Source of the DNA: Candidatus Dojkabacteria bacterium
Lineage (GTDB): Bacteria > Patescibacteriota > Dojkabacteria > B142 > OLB20
DNA length: 64,000 nt
Reading direction: 5' to 3'
Assembly: GCA_035444565.1 (NCBI GenBank)
Contig: DAOMOX010000003.1
Location: 31,488 to 95,487 of the forward strand
Part shown: in pieces, positions 1 through 38,452 of the stretch
Layout of the letters: each line of letters begins with the position of its first letter
Position numbering within the stretch: position 1 is the first letter of the stretch
Notes under the pieces: generated by a model
Database searches by the model: none
What the model saw: only the letters and a program-made list of their open reading frames with translations
What the model was told of the DNA's origin: nothing
Position numbers and translations under genes: made by a program

Positions 1-1818
1 CTTTCAGGTTAGACCCGAAGCCAGGTGATCTATCCATGAGCAGGTTGAACCACCTCGAAAGAGGTGGGGAGGACCGAACCCGTGAATGCTGCAAAATTCT
101 GGGATGACTTGTGGATTGGAGTGACACGCTAATCGTACTTGGTGATAGCTGGTTCTCCTCGAAACAGCTTTAGGGTTGGCCTCGGTCGGTAGCATATGGA
201 GGTAGAGCTCTGAATGAATCGCGGGTCCCGTTAGGGATACCGCATTCTCTCAAACTGCGAATGCCATATGTGGAACACCGGGAGTTAGACTACGGGAGAT
301 AAGTTCCGTTGGTCGAAAGGGAAACAGCCCAGACCATCAGTTAAGGTCCCTAAATATATGCTAAGTGGCAAAGGATGTGAAATTTCATAAACAGCCAGGA
401 GGTTTGCTTAGAGGCAGCCATCCTTTAAAGAGTGCGTAACAGCTCACTGGTCTAGAAGTTTTGCGCCTATAATGTAACGGGGCTCAAGCATATTACCGAA
501 ACTATGGATTTATTATCGTGAAGATAATAAGTGGTAGAGGAGCGTTGTATTCAGCAGTGAAGGTGAGCCGTAAGGCCAGCTGGAGCGGATACAAGTGAGA
601 ATGCAGGCATGAGTAGCGCAATTCCGGTGAAAACCCGGGACACCGAATATTCAAGGTTTCCTTGGCTATGTTAATCATCCAAGGGTTAGTCGGTCCTAAG
701 CCGAGGCAGAAGTGCGTAGGCGATGGACATCAGGTTAATATTCCTGAACCGCTTTTAAATCGTTATCAACTATGGGGTGACTGATTTGGAAATGTTTTTG
801 AGTCGATAGGTCGACTTTCAAGTAGTAAGTTAGTTCTGTTTGGTAAATCCGGCAGAATGTTTCCTCGATTCGTCGAGGATGGATGCGAGCTATTACGAGA
901 AGCTGAAATCTACGGATGGAAGCAACATAAACTATTCAGGTCACAAGAAAATCCTCTATGTGAGAGTTAAAGGCGACCGTACCGCAAACCGACACAGGTG
1001 AATTGGTAGAGTATACCAAGGTGATCGAGTAACCCCTTGTTAAGGAATTCGGCAAATTTATCCCGTATCTTTGGTAGAAGGGATGCCCACTATTATTCGT
1101 AATGGTGGGTCGCAGAGAAATAGCCCAATCGACTGTTTAACAAAAACACAGGTCCCTGCTAAAGCGCAAGCTGACGTATAGGGGCTGACGCCTGCCCAAT
1201 GTCAGAAGATTACGGAAGGAGGTTATCCCGCCCTCAGAACTCTTTATAGAGTCTTGAGGGCGGGAGAAGCTTCTGACCTAAGTCCTGATGAATGGCGGCT
1301 GTAACTATAACGGTCCTAAGGTAGCGAAGTTCCTCGGCGCTTAATAGGCGTCCCGCATGAAAGGCGTAACGAGTTGGGCACTGTCTCAACAGGGGACTCG
1401 GCGAACATTGAAATGGCTGTGAAGATGCGGCCTACCCGCACCAGGACAAAAAGACCCCGGGATCTTTACTGTAGCTTGGCATTGAAACAATGCTTTCATT
1501 GTAGAGTGTAGGAGGGAGACTTTGAAACCCGCTCGCCAGAGTGGGTGGAGTCGCCAATGTAACACCTCCCTTTGTGTGTGTTGTTTCTTATCCCAGCCCC
1601 TGATCGGGGTGGGAGACAGTGTTTGGTGGGCAGTTTGACTGGGGCGGTTTCTTACTAAAAAGTAACGTAAGATTCCAAAGGTCGACTCAAGCTGGATGGA
1701 AATCAGCTGTAGAGCATAATGGTATAAGTCGGCTTTACTGCAAGACTGACAGGTCGAGCAGTCACGAAAGTGGGGCATAGTGACCCTTAAGTAGCGTGTG
1801 GAAGCGCTTTTGTTTAAA

Positions 1819-1849
<31 letters not shown>

Positions 1850-1884
1850 GTCTTGCCCAAGCGTCCATAGCGACGGCAAGGTTC

Positions 1885-1915
<31 letters not shown>

Positions 1916-1929
1916 AGGTGGAGAAGCTT

Positions 1930-1978
<49 letters not shown>

Positions 1979-2182
1979 AACCGACGTGAGTCAGGTTGGT
2001 CTCTATCCGGTGTGGGCGTTAGAATTCTGAGGGATCCGACCTTCAGTACGAGAGGACCAAGGTGAAGTAACCTCTGGTGCACCAGTTGTTCCACCAGGAG
2101 CATAGCTGGGTAGCCAAGTTGCTATTAGGATAAACGCTGAAAGCATATAAGCGTGAAGCCACTCCCAAGATGAGAATTCTTC

Positions 2183-2515
2183 ATCCCGCCCTGAAAGTTT
2201 ATAAATATCAGAAATATTCCAGAATTGTTAATTAAAATATCTTATGATTTTTTATGTATATATTTTAAAATCTAAAAAATTAAATAAGCTATATTTCGGC
2301 TTTACCCCGAATTTATTGGTAAGAATAAATAAACATAATTCTGGTAAAAGTCTTTTTACTTCTAAAGCCAAAGATTGGCAACTATTATATGCCGAAATGT
2401 TTATTAATAAACAAGACGCAGTTAATAGGGAACAAACGTTAAAACAGTTTGGCGGATCTTATAGAAGTTTGAAAAAAAGACTAGAAAATACTTTTATAGA
2501 TTTTCAGGGCGGGAT
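2183..2515 (+). other. Insertion (IVS or expansion) in 23S helix 98, bounded by a perfect 14-bp inverted repeat (ATCCCGCCCTGAAA / TTTCAGGGCGGGAT) and containing a GIY-YIG ORF
   Basis: The 23S sequence stops after GAGATGAGAATTCTTC (equivalent to E. coli GAGATGAGTTCTCCC just before H98) and resumes at AAAAGACTCCCAGTAGACTACTGGGTTGATAGGC. The intervening 333 bp are AT-rich, unlike rRNA. The boundary repeats are exact reverse complements. Confidence 0.75.
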
Positions 2516-2531
2516 AAAAGACTCCCAGTAG
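2244..2531 (+). CDS. GIY-YIG nuclease-superfamily small protein (YhbQ/UPF0213-like), encoded inside the 23S rRNA insertion
   Basis: ATG start. N-terminal FYVYILKS...LYFGFTPNL..R...HNSGKS matches the GIY-YIG core (GIY..YIG, then Arg and a His/Asn-SGK segment). The ORF is 95 aa and its last 5 codons plus stop run into resumed 23S sequence. Confidence 0.65.
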   Translation: MIFYVYILKSKKLNKLYFGFTPNLLVRINKHNSGKSLFTSKAKDWQLLYAEMFINKQDAVNREQTLKQFGGSYRSLKKRLENTFIDFQGGIKDSQ

Positions 2532-2883
2532 ACTACTGGGTTGATAGGCTCTAGGTGTAAGCCCTGTAAGGGGTTTAGCCAAGGAGATACTAATAAGTCG
2601 TAACTTAAGGAAATTTTATTGAATGTTAATGCCTTCGTATTTTTTATGAGTACGATAAAGTTCTCGTTTTTACGAGAATAGGTAGGTGAATAACTTAGAC
2701 AACTAAACCTCCATGAATTAGAATAGTTCATCCCGCCCTCTGTAAAGGGCGGGATAAACTCTGGGCGAGAGCCCAGGGGACCAGACTACGTTTAAAAAAC
2801 TAAAAACGTTATGAAGTTGATAGGTCCCGGATTAAATCCGGGACACCAGACTCCGTAACAGAAAACAAGTTTTTTGAACGGAG

Positions 2884-3638: not shown

Positions 3639-5156
3639 ATGGCAAGTGACGATCAAAAAGAATTCATGCCAGATTTGACCGGAGCAGAAAATGTTGAGTT
3701 GCCTGATCCAGAATCAGCAGCTATAAGTGCAATCGTTGAGGAATTACCTGAAGGGACAGACGTTGGAATAGTCGGAGATTTAGCTTTTACTGCTGAACAA
3801 GGAGATGAAGAATTACCAACAACAGCCTCAACTCAAATCGAGGCTGGAGGGAAGGCCATAGATGTTGCACCACAACTTAATACAAATCAAAGAGTTAAAT
3901 CAACAGAAGATGCCGTTACTGCTGGCCAAGAAGCAAGACTTGCTGAGGAACAAGAGAGTTTCGCATCGGTAGATGACGGAGGGGGAAAAGAAACACCAGA
4001 CGGGGCACCAGCACCAGACGGGGCACCAGCACCAGACGGAGCACCAGCACCAGACGGAGCACCAGCACCAGATGGAGCACCTGCACCAGACGGGGCACCA
4101 GCACCAGACGGGGCACCAGCACCAGACGGGGCACCAGCACCAGATGGAGCGCCAGCACCAGATGGAGCACCTGCACCAGACGGGGCACCAGCACCAGACG
4201 GAGCACCAGCACCAACTGTGGCTGAACAAATTGACATCATACCAACCCCTCCAGCAGGTCCACCTCCGTCACCAGAAATTACACTTTTGGAGAACGAGTT
4301 AGCAGAGACGATTGATTACAGAAAAGGGGCAGGTAGATTACTAGAATTAATAAAAGATGGAAAAGTTACGCTTGAAGAAGCTGAAAAGCACGTAGGTACA
4401 ATGACTGCTGGCACTGAAAGAAAGAGAATATTTACGGAGGCTTTATCGCCGTTAGTAGCAGCGAAAGAATTCAATGACAAGGCAATAAAGGCTACAACTG
4501 TTGAAGGGATGCTTGCAGAAGTTGATAAACTTCTTAAAGATGATAGACTTTCACCTCTTGAGGCCCGATCGTTAAGGGCTGCAATAAAGGAAAAGAAAAT
4601 TGCTGTTACTAGGAATAAAGCATTGATGGTAGAGGAGAAGGCTGATATAGAAGCATCCAAAAAGTTGGCTGATGCGAGTATTAATGCTCAGAAATTAAAT
4701 AAACTAGTATTTGGGTTGAGGACGTTCGCACCAGGTATTGGGATTGCGACACTTGGTGCTGTAGTTGGTGTTTATTCAGGTAATTGGGCTCTCGCAGGTG
4801 GAATTGCAGGATTAGGTGCTGGGGTTGCTCTGTTCAGTGGAGTATCCAAGAAATGGAATCTTAGAAGTAGTGAAATCGAAAAGGCAATCCAGAATATTAA
4901 AACTGAACAATCTAGGCAATTATTAAATTACCAAAATAGACTTGCTGAAGCAAATACTCAAGTTGTCCATGGAATACGAGGAATTGCTGAAGCTACCGTG
5001 CAGATTTTTGCCGCTAAATATCCTAAACCACAAGGTATGTCTATGGATGAATATAAGGGGATTATTAGACAACAAATTAACTCTGCCAATACTGGGCAGC
5101 TGGAAGATGCGGTGAAGGCTGTAGACTTTGCATTATCTACATCATCAGATGATTAA
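3639..5156 (+). CDS. Hypothetical repeat protein: acidic low-complexity N-terminus, 12 x (DGAPAP), a proline-rich linker, a coiled/charged region, and a glycine-zipper transmembrane hairpin near the C-terminus
   Basis: 505-aa ORF. The codon-level 18-nt tandem repeat is in-frame. The segment FAPGIGIATLGAVVGVYSGNWALAGGIAGLGAGVALFSGV is a GxxxG-rich membrane segment. No homolog recognised. Confidence 0.6.
   Translation: MASDDQKEFMPDLTGAENVELPDPESAAISAIVEELPEGTDVGIVGDLAFTAEQGDEELPTTASTQIEAGGKAIDVAPQLNTNQRVKSTEDAVTAGQEARLAEEQESFASVDDGGGKETPDGAPAPDGAPAPDGAPAPDGAPAPDGAPAPDGAPAPDGAPAPDGAPAPDGAPAPDGAPAPDGAPAPDGAPAPTVAEQIDIIPTPPAGPPPSPEITLLENELAETIDYRKGAGRLLELIKDGKVTLEEAEKHVGTMTAGTERKRIFTEALSPLVAAKEFNDKAIKATTVEGMLAEVDKLLKDDRLSPLEARSLRAAIKEKKIAVTRNKALMVEEKADIEASKKLADASINAQKLNKLVFGLRTFAPGIGIATLGAVVGVYSGNWALAGGIAGLGAGVALFSGVSKKWNLRSSEIEKAIQNIKTEQSRQLLNYQNRLAEANTQVVHGIRGIAEATVQIFAAKYPKPQGMSMDEYKGIIRQQINSANTGQLEDAVKAVDFALSTSSDD
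3996..4211 (+). repeat. 12 tandem copies of an 18-bp unit (CCAGACGG[GA]GCACCAGCA), encoding (PDGAPA)n
   Basis: Direct reading. Third-position variants (gggg/ggag, gacgg/gatgg) show near-identical units. This repeat generates the spurious antisense ORFs at 3887-4302. Confidence 0.95.
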
Positions 5157-24460: not shown

Positions 24461-24625
24461 TACTAAATCAAGATTTCATAAATGAAGTGAAATGAAATCT
24501 TTGATTTTGTGTTGTCCCGCACAATCTAAGATTGATGCGGGACCTCATTTAAATAATAAATAATTAATTTCCTCATTTTCATGCATACCTCTTGGTGCTT
24601 ATCTAATTCGCTAATCCTGCTTTAA

Positions 24626-24784
24626 GGGACAAGTTCGGGTAAACTCACCTGCACTTCATTTGGTTCATTAACCCCTCGATTGATTTTATAGAGCAATGTG
24701 TAGGTCCCGTATAACTCGCTGTGCTCGTTTACGGGACAAGTTCGGGTAAACTCACCTGCACTTCGTTTGGTTCGTTAACCCCTC
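24626..24784. repeat. Two direct copies of a ~52-bp element (GGGACAAGTTCGGGTAAACTCACCTGCACTTC[A/G]TTTGGTTC[A/G]TTAACCCCTC), 107 bp apart
   Basis: Direct reading. The copies are at 24626-24677 and 24733-24784. A hairpin GTCCCGCACAATCTAAGATTGATGCGGGAC lies at 24516-24545. Confidence 0.8.
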
Positions 24785-24823
24785 ACATGATTATACCCCA
24801 CAAGATTATAAGCGTATAGGGCA

Positions 24824-32723: not shown

Positions 32724-32875
32724 TACAGGGTCACTAGCCCCGTATTTAATACGGGGGAACCTAGACGAAAGTATTTTGTTATTTACTTGTATACTTTCAT
32801 ACAGGGTCACTAGCCCTGGATTAAATCCAGGGGAACCTAGACGAAAGTATTTTGCTTTTTACTTAGATACTTTCA
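32724..32875 (-). repeat. Two 76-bp tandem pseudo-units, each carrying the 3' ~20 nt of tRNA-Trp (acceptor 3' strand plus T-stem flank) with the T-loop replaced by a hairpin, plus a second hairpin
   Basis: Units begin at 32724 and 32800, and the genuine tRNA at 32876, a period of 76 bp. The shared blocks are CAGGGTCACTAG and AACCTAGACGA[AG]AG. The inserted hairpins differ with compensatory changes (CCCCGTATTTAATACGGGG versus CCCTGGATTAAATCCAGGG). Confidence 0.8.
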
Positions 32876-32877
32876 TA

Positions 32878-32949
32878 CAGGGTCACTAGGATTCGAACCT
32901 AGACGAGAGGTTTTGGAGACCTCCATGCTACCATTGACATCATGACCCT
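32878..32949 (-). tRNA. tRNA-Trp (anticodon CCA)
   Basis: The reverse complement is AGGGTCATGATGTCAATGGTAGCATGGAGGTCTCCAAAACCTCTCGTCTAGGTTCGAATCCTAGTGACCCTG, with anticodon loop CTCCAAA. It sits in the classic position between rpmG and secE. Confidence 0.9.
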
Positions 32950-33132
32950 TCGTCGCAACAAGGCTCCAGCTTTCGTGAAGATGCTAAAGTACTTCACTTC
33001 AGCTTCCACCTGTTGCTCCTTTGAGATTTTAACTCCTTATAGTCGTTAAAATCTTAAAAGAAAATTATTAAAGAACGTTCATTATTCTAGCCTTTTAATC
33101 TCTTAATATTAAAATTTTTTAATTTTTAAATA

Positions 33133-33300
33133 TTATTTAACCTTTGATTCAACAAACTTCTCGTGTTTACGTGTTTTCTTATCGAACTTTTTGGTTTCAA
33201 TTTTTTCGTTCGTATTTATTCTATTTTTCTTTGTTATATAAAATGTACCAGTCTTAGGATTGGCCATTTTAATAATTATTCTGTTTCCTTTTTTTGCCAT
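33133..33300 (-). CDS. rpmG: 50S ribosomal protein L33 (55 aa; below the ORF-track cutoff)
   Basis: Hand translation of the minus strand gives MAKKGNRIIIKMANPKTGTFYITKKNRINTNEKIETKKFDKKTRKHEKFVESKVK, a typical L33 sequence. The rpmG/tRNA-Trp/secE/nusG synteny supports the call. Confidence 0.8.
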   Translation of the reverse strand: MAKKGNRIIIKMANPKTGTFYITKKNRINTNEKIETKKFDKKTRKHEKFVESKVK

Positions 33301-33439
33301 TATTTTTGTTATTAATAGTTATTTAAATTTTTTATTGAATAATCGTCAATGTGTCGATAATCAAACTTATAAAGATCCCAGATCCCGTAAGATCTTCCTA
33401 TAGTCGATCTACGGGATTACAACTTTTCTAATTTCGCTT

Positions 33440-33555
33440 TGCTCAATAAGAAAAGTTAGTAAGCTGGAGAGGGGACTCGAACCCATGACCGACGGTTTAT
33501 CCCGCTGGAGCTGGGGGAGAGATTCGAACTCTCGACCTACTGTTTATCACTCCTC
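33440..33555 (-). repeat. Partial tRNA copies downstream of tRNA-Thr(UGU): a 37-nt exact duplicate of its 3' end (33463-33499) and a second T-arm/acceptor-like fragment (33500-33555)
   Basis: GCTGGAGAGGGGACTCGAACCCATGACCGACGGTTTA occurs at 33463 and again at the start of the real tRNA (33557). The neighbouring fragment contains GAGAGATTCGAACTCTC (T-arm-like) but no D or anticodon arm. Confidence 0.75.
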
Positions 33556-33628
33556 AGCTGGAGAGGGGACTCGAACCCATGACCGACGGTTTACAAAACC
33601 GTTGCTCTACCAACTGAGCTACTCCAGC
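33556..33628 (-). tRNA. tRNA-Thr (anticodon UGU)
   Basis: The reverse complement is GCTGGAGTAGCTCAGTTGGTAGAGCAACGGTTTTGTAAACCGTCGGTCATGGGTTCGAGTCCCCTCTCCAGCT, with anticodon loop TTTGTAA. Confidence 0.85.
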
Positions 33629-33640
33629 TGAGGAGTGACT

Positions 33641-33758
33641 CTAACCAACTGCCTGTCCCACGTAGCTTAAGCGAAGCGGGAAGCTATCCCAGCTCCTGCG
33701 GGACTCTACCTAACTGCTTGTCCACCGTAGCTTTAGCGTAGGTGGAAGCTACTCCAGC
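33641..33758 (-). repeat. Two ~60-nt elements upstream of tRNA-Thr(UGU), each beginning (in tRNA orientation) with the tRNA's first ~12 nt (GCTGG[AG][GA]TAGCT) and followed by a covarying hairpin; a third copy sits upstream of tRNA-Thr(GGU) at 38070-38135
   Basis: Compare CCCACGTAGCTTAAGCGAAGCGGG, CCACCGTAGCTTTAGCGTAGGTGG, and (at 38090) CCTTCGTAGCTTTAGCGAAGAAGG. The loops are constant and the stems carry compensatory changes. Confidence 0.7.
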
Positions 33759-33973
33759 ATAGTATATTTATTATAAAGAGCTATTCTAATCTTTTGCCTG
33801 CCAGAGGCAGACACTCAATTCATCTACAACTCACCACGTTCGTTGGATGAATTGGTGCAGAGGGAGGGATTCCCCATGCAATCTCACTACGTTCGATTCA
33901 CGGAGTAAACTTCTCATCCCGATCGATAATTCGAACAAAACGTTTTTATTATAACGAGCTTTTACAAATTAAT

Positions 33974-34056
33974 TGCAGAGGGAGGGATTCGAACCCCCGT
34001 AGACTCTCGCCGCCAGATTTACAGTCTGGTACGTTTGACCGCTCCGTCACCTCTGC
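33974..34056 (-). tRNA. tRNA-Tyr (anticodon GUA, long variable arm)
   Basis: The reverse complement is GCAGAGGTGACGGAGCGGTCAAACGTACCAGACTGTAAATCTGGCGGCGAGAGTCTACGGGGGTTCGAATCCCTCCCTCTGCA. A 17-nt copy of its 3' end (GCAGAGGGAGGGATTC) recurs at 33853-33869. Confidence 0.85.
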
Positions 34057-34356
34057 TGCGTCGTCGAAGCAAAGTTCTAGCTCTTCCGTATTTAGTAAAG
34101 TACTTATGAATTCAGAACTTTCTAAAAATCAGCAAAAAGCATTAAATCCTTGCAAATCAAAGAACAATTGAGTATATCTCAAACCTCATTTTTTTTCCAA
34201 TTTTAAATAAGCCTGTGGCGGTTTTTATTCTTAAAATGGGAAATTATTAAAGGGTAGAAAGATTTTATCAGTAAAATGATTAAAAAAGAAGAGAAATAAT
34301 AATTTTTGGAAAATAAACTATTGAGATGTAAAATTAACAATAAAGTTAATTTATGT

Positions 34357-34431: not shown

Positions 34432-34622
34432 GTGGTGTGTGAGTGAAACGAACACAGACCACTGGTAGGACTCTGAACTAGATTCAGGGTCTTTAAAAGT
34501 CCAGCGAACAAAGTGAGCTGATGACAAATTGAGTGTAAAGTAAAATTTCGTAGAAATTTGTACGGGACCTTTGCTGGTAAAATCAAATTTTTTTATCATC
34601 TAATTAATTCTTTGTAATTCAA

Positions 34623-37321: not shown

Positions 37322-37496
37322 TTAATATAATTTTAAATATTTATTTATTACTTTATCACTATACACTTTATTCTGAAAAGCATTGAAGCGGGGGAACTCA
37401 AGTCGATGAATTTGACAAACAATTGGTAGGGGAGATCCCGTACAACTCCTTTTAGTCGTTTACTGGATTACAGAGTTTCTAAATTCATGTGTGTCT

Positions 37497-38020
37497 TGAA
37501 AAGATCCTCGATAATTTCGCTTCGCTCAATTTCGAGGATTATTGATTTGCTAAGCTCATGCTTCGCTAAGAATATGCCTTGTATTAGATCCCGTACAACT
37601 CCTTTCAGTCGTTTACGGGATTACAACTTTTCTAAACTCGCAAGCTCGTTAAGAAAAGTTAGTAAGCTGGAACAGAGATTCCTAAACCAGCTGTTGGTGA
37701 AGAATGAACCTTACAGCTGGTTAGTCCCTGCCTTCAGATTTTTATCTGAAGGAGGGGAGAACTCAATTGGACCGTATTTAGATAAACAAAACAAGGGAAG
37801 ATCCTGTGCAATTAAATGTAGTGTTAATTGAAAAGATCCTCGATAATTTCGCTTCGCTCAATTTCGAGGATTATTGATTTGCTAAGCTCATGCTTCGCTA
37901 AGAATATGCCTTGTATTAGATCCCGTACAACTCCTTTCAGTCGTTTACGGGATTACAACTTTTCTAAACTCGCAAGCTCGTTAAGAAAAGTTAGTAAGCT
38001 GGAACAGAGATTCGAACTCT
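37497..38020. repeat. ~184-bp direct repeat (37497-37680 and 37838-38020) whose end contains the last 16 nt of tRNA-Thr(GGU); a further partial copy lies at 37415-37470
   Basis: The two ORF-track products (37487 and 37828) share an identical 60-aa string, so the DNA is duplicated. Each copy ends in GCTGGAACAGAGATTC, the reverse complement of the tRNA 3' end, but only the second copy continues into a complete tRNA. Confidence 0.85.
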
Positions 38021-38069
38021 GGACCCCACCCTTACCATGGGTGTGCTCTGCCAACTGAGCTATTCCAGC
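37997..38069 (-). tRNA. tRNA-Thr (anticodon GGU)
   Basis: The reverse complement is GCTGGAATAGCTCAGTTGGCAGAGCACACCCATGGTAAGGGTGGGGTCCAGAGTTCGAATCTCTGTTCCAGCT. Confidence 0.85.
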
Positions 38070-38452
38070 GTAGCTGGTCTCAAAACCAACTGCTTGTCCT
38101 TCGTAGCTTTAGCGAAGAAGGAAGCTATTCCAGCATGAGAAAAATTATAACAGAAAACAATTGAAATGAGCATAAAAAAGCCCTACTGCAGTTCCCTGAT
38201 AGAAGAATTGGAAACTCCTAAACCACAAGTGGTTGTCCTCAGTCCCATCTACACGTAGACAGGAAGATTTCGGATTCCCTATTGAAAGTGTCGAGTTCAA
38301 TTTGATCTATCAAAAGAGCATTGGTAGGGCAGTAAAGTATATCAAAATTGAATCCCAAGTAACAATAAATCTTCTGATATTGCGCAAACAACTAGAACTC
38401 TAGGTGGAATATTCCCTGTTACAAGTGGTAGAATATTGAACTTAACTTACCA

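Follow-up and report, generated by a model that had tools for sequence, protein, structure and literature searches.

Fragments of tRNA genes beside their intact counterparts in a Dojkabacteria contig as probable scars of serial allele replacement

Copies of tRNA-gene ends beside intact tRNA genes

We analysed a 64,000-nt stretch of a contig from a Candidatus Dojkabacteria bacterium (the window), in which the genes for tRNA-Trp, tRNA-Thr(UGU), tRNA-Tyr and tRNA-Thr(GGU) have exact, same-orientation copies of their own ends within ~330 nt. Comparison with relatives identifies these copies as displaced fragments of alternative alleles of these genes. We consider it likely that they are scars left in the DNA by serial replacement of alleles and by duplication, with breakpoints in loop-coding positions, and that mobile mini-palindromes have settled in the dead copies. 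The region is probably a lineage-specific, fast-turnover set of tRNA-gene fragments and not a dedicated conserved functional RNA, and the tRNA fragments themselves would have no required RNA function.

The window is AT-rich and gene-dense, and contains a partial 23S rRNA gene, a 5S rRNA gene and seven tRNA genes. Its NusG homologues belong to Candidatus Dojkabacteria (Candidate Phyla Radiation, CPR/Patescibacteria). A plastid origin, which the AT richness might suggest, is ruled out by the gene order and the NusG matches, both of which indicate Dojkabacteria. The minus-strand order around the fragments is tRNA-Tyr, tRNA-Thr(UGU), rpmG, tRNA-Trp, secE, nusG and rplKAJL. The original prediction placed partial own-end copies beside tRNA-Trp, tRNA-Thr(UGU) and tRNA-Tyr, and all of these exist, with coordinate offsets of 1-3 nt. 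Their derivation from the adjacent genes was likewise borne out. The 17-mers are confined to the tRNA and its stub; the expectation by chance is 0.08-0.19, which excludes a chance origin. Own-end copies were also sought for the remaining three tRNAs of the window, tRNA-Ala(GGC), tRNA-Arg(CCU) and tRNA-Ala(CGC), and none were found.

The spacers between the tRNAs and the copies are 9-146 nt long and consist of non-coding hairpins. Direct repeats of the tRNA 3' segment begin at position 36 in tRNA-Thr(UGU), at 57 in tRNA-Tyr and tRNA-Thr(GGU), and at 56/57 in tRNA-Trp. The breakpoints coincide with loop-coding positions, namely T-loop positions 56/57, anticodon positions 34-36 and the D arm.

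Nested alleles at tRNA-Thr(UGU)

The pieces around tRNA-Thr(UGU) are nested gene-in-gene-in-gene, in the order U1(U2(tRNA)D1)D2 (Table 1). Upstream lie two 5'-end hairpin units, as predicted, with a wider extent than the 33641-33758 first assigned: U1 and U2 are 65 nt each and together span 33629-33758. U2 is built as U1 but has another acceptor (GCTGGGA) and another hairpin stem, and the allele B' 5' end seen in it is intact in a relative's locus, L014 (L numbers denote loci from other assemblies). Downstream, a T-arm/acceptor-like stub had been noted at 33500-33555. It is present, with the 3' half itself, D1, limited to 33509-33546 and 74% identical to the window's own Thr 3' half. Next to it, the copy of the Thr 3' end described as 37 nt (33463-33499) is D2, which proved to be 38 nt long. 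The flank of D2 is orthologous to the sequence downstream of the intact tRNA-Thr of L001, which is 100% identical to the window's allele A.

Since D1 corresponds to the L003/L014 allele, U2 to the 5' part of L014, and D2 with its flank to the L001 locus, U1 and D2 are the ends of the resident gene; between them stands an inserted allele-B' gene, which is in turn split by another allele-A gene. Thus, the resident allele A, in its native flanks, was split between about positions 25 and 36 when a whole tRNA of allele B' was inserted together with its short flanks, which are complementary to each other. The B' gene was then split at the same place by another allele-A cassette, which gave the present arrangement.

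The pairing within the locus follows the same nesting. The leader pairs perfectly with the trailer in a 17-nt inverted repeat that includes the acceptor stem (I1); acceptor stem and leader/trailer together form a 17-18 bp helix that carries the intact tRNA-Thr(UGU) at its end. One layer out, the U1 tail and U2 acceptor pair with the D1 acceptor and trailer at 15/16 positions (I5), and the linker CCAGCGGGA pairs with the U1 tail. The predicted fold of the whole stretch is a single hairpin with interruptions, which ends in the tRNA (z = -6).

Two other arrangements were considered for these pieces. As split tRNAs, U2+D1 and U1+D2 would lack positions 26-35 and could not form a cloverleaf with an anticodon. 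A tandem head-to-tail series of mini-tRNAs made of U1, U2, D1 and D2 fits U3, the comparable unit at tRNA-Thr(GGU), but U1 contradicts it, because head and tail of U1 do not pair; nesting is also needed to explain the native flanks of U1 and D2.

Duplications at tRNA-Trp, tRNA-Tyr and tRNA-Thr(GGU)

The two 76-bp Trp pseudo-units of the original prediction were found at 32724-32799 and 32800-32875. Each includes exact tRNA-Trp positions 44-55 and 61-72, and the T loop is replaced at 56/57, after TTC, by a GC hairpin, CCCCnGnATTwAATnCnGGGG. Hairpin stems do differ between units with pairing kept, as had been claimed. The 17-nt copy of the tRNA-Tyr 3' end is also real, 3 nt away from the 33853-33869 first reported.

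At tRNA-Thr(GGU), the 30-nt hairpin of U3 has the stem TCCTTC/GAAGGA. Downstream, an exact 186-nt duplication (37496-37681 and 37828-38013) starts at the last 17 nt of the gene, from T-loop position 57, and continues through 169 nt of downstream hairpins.

The duplications and insertions at these three genes extend to the gene end from a breakpoint in loop-coding sequence (T loop 56/57, anticodon 34/35 or D arm), and have left stubs and tandem units beside the intact gene. The stubs often represent an allele that is intact in sister strains.

Table 1 Intact tRNA genes, tRNA-gene fragments and associated hairpins, in window coordinates.
Feature	Position	Strand	Remarks
Two 76-nt pseudo-3'-halves of tRNA-Trp	32724-32799, 32800-32875	minus	Anticodon position 35 to position 72
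tRNA-Trp(CCA), intact	32878-32949	minus	ARAGORN and Rfam
Two dispersed hairpin repeats, AACTTTTCT..AGAAAAGTT and TAATCCCGTA..TACGGGATC	33380-33461	minus	Further copies at 37470-37992
D2, resident allele-A 3' half, positions 36-73	33462-33499	minus	38-nt exact copy; native downstream flank retained
Trailer GAGGAGTGA, D1, linker CCAGCGGGA	33500-33555	minus	Inverted repeat I5
D1, 3' half of allele B/B' from position 36	33509-33546	minus	38/38 nt as in intact tRNA-Thr of L003 and L014
tRNA-Thr(UGU), intact, allele A	33556-33628	minus	ARAGORN and Rfam
U2, middle shell 5' part	33629-33693	minus	Allele B' 5' end GCTGGGATAGCT..CAGTTGGTTAGAG, 30-nt hairpin, leader ACTCCTCA
U1, outer shell 5' part	33694-33758	minus	tRNA-Thr type A positions 1-12, 30-nt hairpin, D-arm remnant, linker CCGCAGGA
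Tyr stub unit	33856-33973	minus	Spacer, then GGGAT..hairpin..(G)AATCCC, then 17-nt exact copy
Tyr 17-nt stub, tRNA positions 67-83	33856-33872	minus	Break in T loop 56/57; starts at T-loop position 57
tRNA-Tyr(GUA), intact	33974-34056	minus	ARAGORN and Rfam
Insert and repeat downstream of tRNA-Thr(GGU)	37496-37827	minus	146-nt hairpin-ended insert 37682-37827, then repeat 37496-37681
tRNA-Thr(GGU), intact	37997-38069	minus	4 kb from the Thr(UGU) cluster
U3	38070-38134	minus	First 12 nt of tRNA-Thr(GGU), 30-nt hairpin, degenerate remnant; directly upstream of intact gene

Comparison with relatives

Through NusG homologues we retrieved ~15 syntenic loci. Conservation of the units in relatives was not borne out, as several homologous loci are compact and free of fragments (L003, L158, L159 and L161; L005 and L006; L164). 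The copy-number comparison with sister genomes that the original prediction had suggested showed variation between strains: presence, copy number and content of the units vary at identical or 98% identical NusG protein, and unit number and content differ at the same NusG protein in L013 versus L014 and in L154 versus L155-157.

At tRNA-Thr(UGU), L018 carries shells as in the window, with a 95-nt two-hairpin module in place of the U1 D-loop insert and with the outer-shell pairing degrading. A single Thr shell is present in L008, with complementary linkers CCGTTTAA and TAGACGGGA that are unrelated to those of the window, and L016, L014 and L154 show one variant of Thr nesting each. The fragments erode by deletion, D being shortened in L013 and lost altogether in L154. 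Tyr stub units number two in L008, one in L001, L014 and L016, and none in L003, L005 and L154. At tRNA-Thr(GGU), U3-type units are present twice in L001 and absent from L003; L001 has an insert and stub as in the window beside an intact gene with a different T arm.

A Trp pseudo-unit occurs once in L001 and is missing from L003, L005 and L164, while L008, L013 and L154 have a full-length pseudo-tRNA-Trp with an anticodon insert. Strains with identical NusG protein carry reciprocal Trp haplotypes. In L013 and L154 a pseudo-gene comes after the intact Trp allele A and has a hairpin of 30-53 nt inserted at 34/35. In L014 and L155-157 the insert lies between the 5' half of Trp allele A and an intact allele B. 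Independently, the distant Dojkabacterium L163 acquired two tandem units of 122 nt that both close with the last 12 nt of its own tRNA-Trp.

The same structures recur in at least seven independent assemblies (L007-L012, L018), which excludes an assembly artefact.

Two side observations concern tRNA-Trp. Within the anticodon hairpin insert, an internal segment is inverted between L013 (455-510) and L014 (1975-2030), which have identical NusG protein. Separately, a conserved ~115-nt module (window 32950-33065, minus strand) lies directly upstream of tRNA-Trp or tRNA-Tyr across Dojkabacteria, with further examples in L008 (5440-5552), L016 (300-400 and 1075-1185) and L162 (1300-1600). It consists of a hairpin with an AAGGAG-containing loop, followed by a long hairpin, GGAGCAAC..GTTGCGACGA, and may be a leader or promoter-associated structure.

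Families of dispersed hairpins

The hairpin shared by U1-U3 is 30 nt long and follows the pattern TCCNNN-TTCGCTNAAGCTAC-NNNGGA-CARG (window 33666-33689, 33729-33752 and 38090-38113). A strict pattern search of 185,579 species genomes returned six stretches on five contigs. Two lie on a single contig of a Dojkabacteria-like metagenome-assembled genome (MAG), DTUPAT2, a close relative of the window. One is upstream of tRNA-Phe in an unclassified MAG, and another upstream of tRNA-Met in a Nitrospirales MAG, within a copy of that tRNA's own first 12 nt. The other two (L020, L022) are from Verrucomicrobia-labelled MAGs (Akkermansia), where the hairpin stands in frame within a LarC-like open reading frame (ORF) and encodes the peptide STFAEATADKQ. 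With a looser pattern we found at least 120 metagenome loci and 10 viral contigs (hairpin loci L019-L022, L024-L153), in agreement with the earlier proposal of a small repeat family. A literature search for the hairpin sequence or its peptide gave nothing relevant, nor did Rfam contain a match.

The 30-nt hairpin often stands inside the loop of a related hairpin. Flanking direct repeats of ≥6 nt accompany 23/131 copies, compared to 6 in the control, and no transposase was seen among the window ORFs scanned. A tight association with tRNA genes was not upheld, since 9/136 copies lie within 300 nt of one. Two of those nine, in the unrelated metagenome loci L111 and L134, stand beside partial tRNA-Pro copies. 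The T-loop hairpin and the anticodon-insert hairpins likewise recur in unrelated loci (L067, L076).

Comparison of the window with L018 reveals how the hairpins change. The backbone is ~97% identical and the differences are concentrated in the hairpins, where entire modules have been exchanged, inverted or added. Examples are Trp unit 1, the insert of U1 and the hairpins downstream of D2, with other family members in place of 33380-33461. Such whole-module swaps and flips explain the 'compensatory' stem differences without stepwise RNA-level selection. Both dispersed copies with a common core and insertion polymorphism between strains are thus found, as in a family of the REP or miniature inverted-repeat transposable element type. 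The mini-palindromes occupy loop positions in dead copies only. Their families are dispersed; members insert into the loops of one another, and modules are swapped or inverted.

A 57-nt repeat upstream of tRNA-Arg(CCU) (window 24600-24800, minus strand) is present in two copies with 95% identity. One copy precedes a CCCGTAAACGA..TACGGGA hairpin of the same family as the hairpins beside the Thr genes.

A leader-trailer helix specific to tRNA-Thr(UGU)

The acceptor stem of tRNA-Thr(UGU) is extended by a 10-11 bp leader-trailer helix in nine lineages, including clean ones: the window (33547-33638), L001, L003, L008, L014, L016, L154, L158 and L161. It is formed by at least five unrelated, always complementary sequences, with 10.2/11 positions paired versus 6.2 ± 1.9 in cross-lineage controls. 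The helix was not found in L005, L162 and L164, and other tRNAs lack it. Each incoming Thr cassette brings its own helix, which may act as a processing stem, or may have arisen as a palindrome lengthened by template switching.

Weighing the explanations

Our preference for serial allele replacement and duplication, with palindromes invading the dead copies, is based on several lines of evidence: the allele identity of D1, U2, D2 and its flank with L003, L014 and L001; the nested pairing (I1, I5 and the fold at z = -6); the patchy presence of units and the reciprocal Trp haplotypes at identical NusG protein; the independent tRNA-Trp case of L163 and the tRNA-Pro cases of L111 and L134; the module swaps between the window and L018, with the hairpin families also found elsewhere (at least 120 metagenome loci, 10 viral contigs and 4 further genomes); and the lack of Rfam matches and of terminator-like sites on the unit hairpins. 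We propose that the driver would be recombination between the resident gene and allelic DNA acquired from relatives, combined with tandem duplication at the locus, probably initiated by breaks at the apex of hairpins formed by single-stranded tRNA-gene DNA. The hairpin repeats would be non-autonomous mobile or copy-converted palindromes.

Several observations weigh against this explanation. The mechanism is a proposal, and no recombinase, integrase or transposase gene lies near the locus, where the neighbours encode GIY-YIG, Nudix and glycosyltransferase proteins. The three variable stem positions of the 30-nt hairpin are paired in 86% of cells, versus 69 ± 1.4% in shuffles (131 distinct copies), hence hairpin formation is to some extent constrained. 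The window and L008 (98% NusG) share the A-in-B' arrangement with linkers that are unrelated yet complementary, which points to recurrent site-specific insertion or to selection on the helix; the use of one insertion site with different helices suggests recurrence. Furthermore, the window and L008 have D1 and trailer sequences that are 100% identical, whereas the neighbouring spacers reach only ~87%. Allele replacement leaves both the leader-trailer helix and the recurrent cassette insertion at the same site unexplained.

An alternative is a dedicated mobile system. Here, a trans-acting structure-specific recombinase or HUH-type enzyme would target hairpin loops, including those of tRNA genes, and move both the mini-hairpins and a tRNA cassette, made of the tRNA with its complementary leader and trailer, which replaces the gene that it destroys. 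The same tRNA-Thr site has been hit repeatedly with different linkers (window, L008, L016, L014, L154), breakpoints lie at the loop apex, hairpins are nested in the loops of related hairpins at many metagenome loci, and hairpin presence varies between near-identical genomes. Nevertheless we regard such a system as unlikely: no candidate enzyme was found among the neighbouring genes, few hairpin copies are close to a tRNA, each Thr insertion loses ten target nucleotides, and elements of 15-30 nt are, to our knowledge, below the size of any known transposable unit. The corresponding replace-and-displace process, in which a hairpin-shaped cassette homes repeatedly into the anticodon arm of an isoacceptor gene and 15-30 nt cross-phylum palindromes insert at DNA-hairpin apexes, is a doubtful proposition to us; if true, it would be a new class of loop-targeting mini mobile elements.

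The original prediction favoured a functional structured RNA, on the strength of covariation. Units co-transcribed with the tRNAs would then have a processing, stability or decoy role, with their stems under selection. The strong predicted structure (z about -6), the stem covariation in the hairpin family and the Thr(UGU) leader-trailer helix, kept in nine lineages with unrelated sequences, speak for it. We nonetheless judge it improbable. Instead of a conserved position and structure with stepwise compensation, the units are variable at the same NusG protein, truncated, differently built or absent in close relatives, their hairpins change by module replacement, and the outer-shell pairing is degrading in L018. 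Searches at the gathering threshold or at E up to 5 matched only tRNAs and rRNAs in Rfam, and so gave no known RNA family for the units. The termination elements that had been suggested as candidates fare no better, as none of the hairpins of the flanking units has a terminator-like site.

Classic att scars, left by islands or phages that integrated at tRNA 3' ends and later lost their interiors, were the other possibility raised at the outset, and seem very improbable. What stands of this idea is that the 3' copies run from the T loop or anticodon loop to the tRNA end, both loops reportedly being integrase sublocations, and that gene content downstream of tRNA-Thr(GGU) varies among relatives. 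Against it, the spacers are as short as 9 nt and no longer than 146 nt, 5'-end copies exist, and the Thr(UGU) copies are nested from both sides. No integrase gene was found near the locus, no integrase-bearing element lies between the copies in the syntenic relatives examined, and a search for distant att partners or stubs found none. Neither Thr allele has a match in any viral contig, which also leaves phage donors of the alleles without a candidate. Group I intron remnants can be dismissed on insert size, exon-end base and the absence of an Rfam match.

Relation to known systems

The fragments resemble the attL/attR copies of integrative elements in being same-orientation 3' copies from the T or anticodon loop beside an intact gene reconstituted with foreign sequence. 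They differ in having no element or integrase between the copies, in their short spacers and 5'-end copies, and in their tandem arrays and two-sided nesting. The hairpins are akin to REP/REPIN, RPE and other miniature palindromic repeats, being likewise short and dispersed, with an imperfect palindrome in which some parts are conserved and others vary. Both are strain-polymorphic and tolerated in non-essential DNA or, as RPEs, even in frame within genes. The present hairpins, however, are 15-30 nt long, with one family crossing phyla, and are inserted in each other's loops and in those of dead tRNAs; no RAYT-like gene was seen among the window ORFs scanned.

Archaea and algae have disrupted tRNA genes (split, permuted or multi-intron) that likewise show separated halves and complementary flanks forming a helix. 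In contrast, the shells here lack positions 26-35, with part of the anticodon, and cannot be reassembled into a functional tRNA; the host is a bacterium, and there is always an intact gene. Group I introns at 35/36 have been described in Patescibacteria tRNAs (PMC13011429), the same phylum and the same anticodon-loop position as the Thr break. The inserts here, however, are 30-90 nt hairpins or a whole tRNA rather than ribozymes, the base at the upstream exon end is other than U, and no intron of Rfam is matched.

Other features of the window

Within window 34432-34600, tRNA-Ala(CGC) has an encoded CCA end and several stable hairpins downstream. Gene content in the stretch from tRNA-Ala(CGC) to tRNA-Thr(GGU) varies among relatives, and this stretch therefore behaves as a tRNA-flanked variable island. 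The 23S rRNA match (window 1-2614) is ~390 nt longer than the matching model positions, which suggests an insertion of the type common in CPR rRNA genes. A 505-aa ORF contains a 12-copy tandem repeat with an 18-nt unit (window 3994-4214).

Implications

The finding indicates that, in minimal CPR genomes, even tRNA genes that are essential and single-copy undergo turnover through replacement of alleles, with nested fossils that stay readable, and that module exchange, and not RNA-level selection, can produce apparent covariation in repeats. In practical terms, such fragments break assemblies and can mislead tRNA annotation. The loop-apex breakpoints, the recurrent insertion at the same site and the 30-nt hairpin common to Patescibacteria, Nitrospirales and Verrucomicrobia-labelled MAGs open mechanistic questions on how these palindromes originate and spread.

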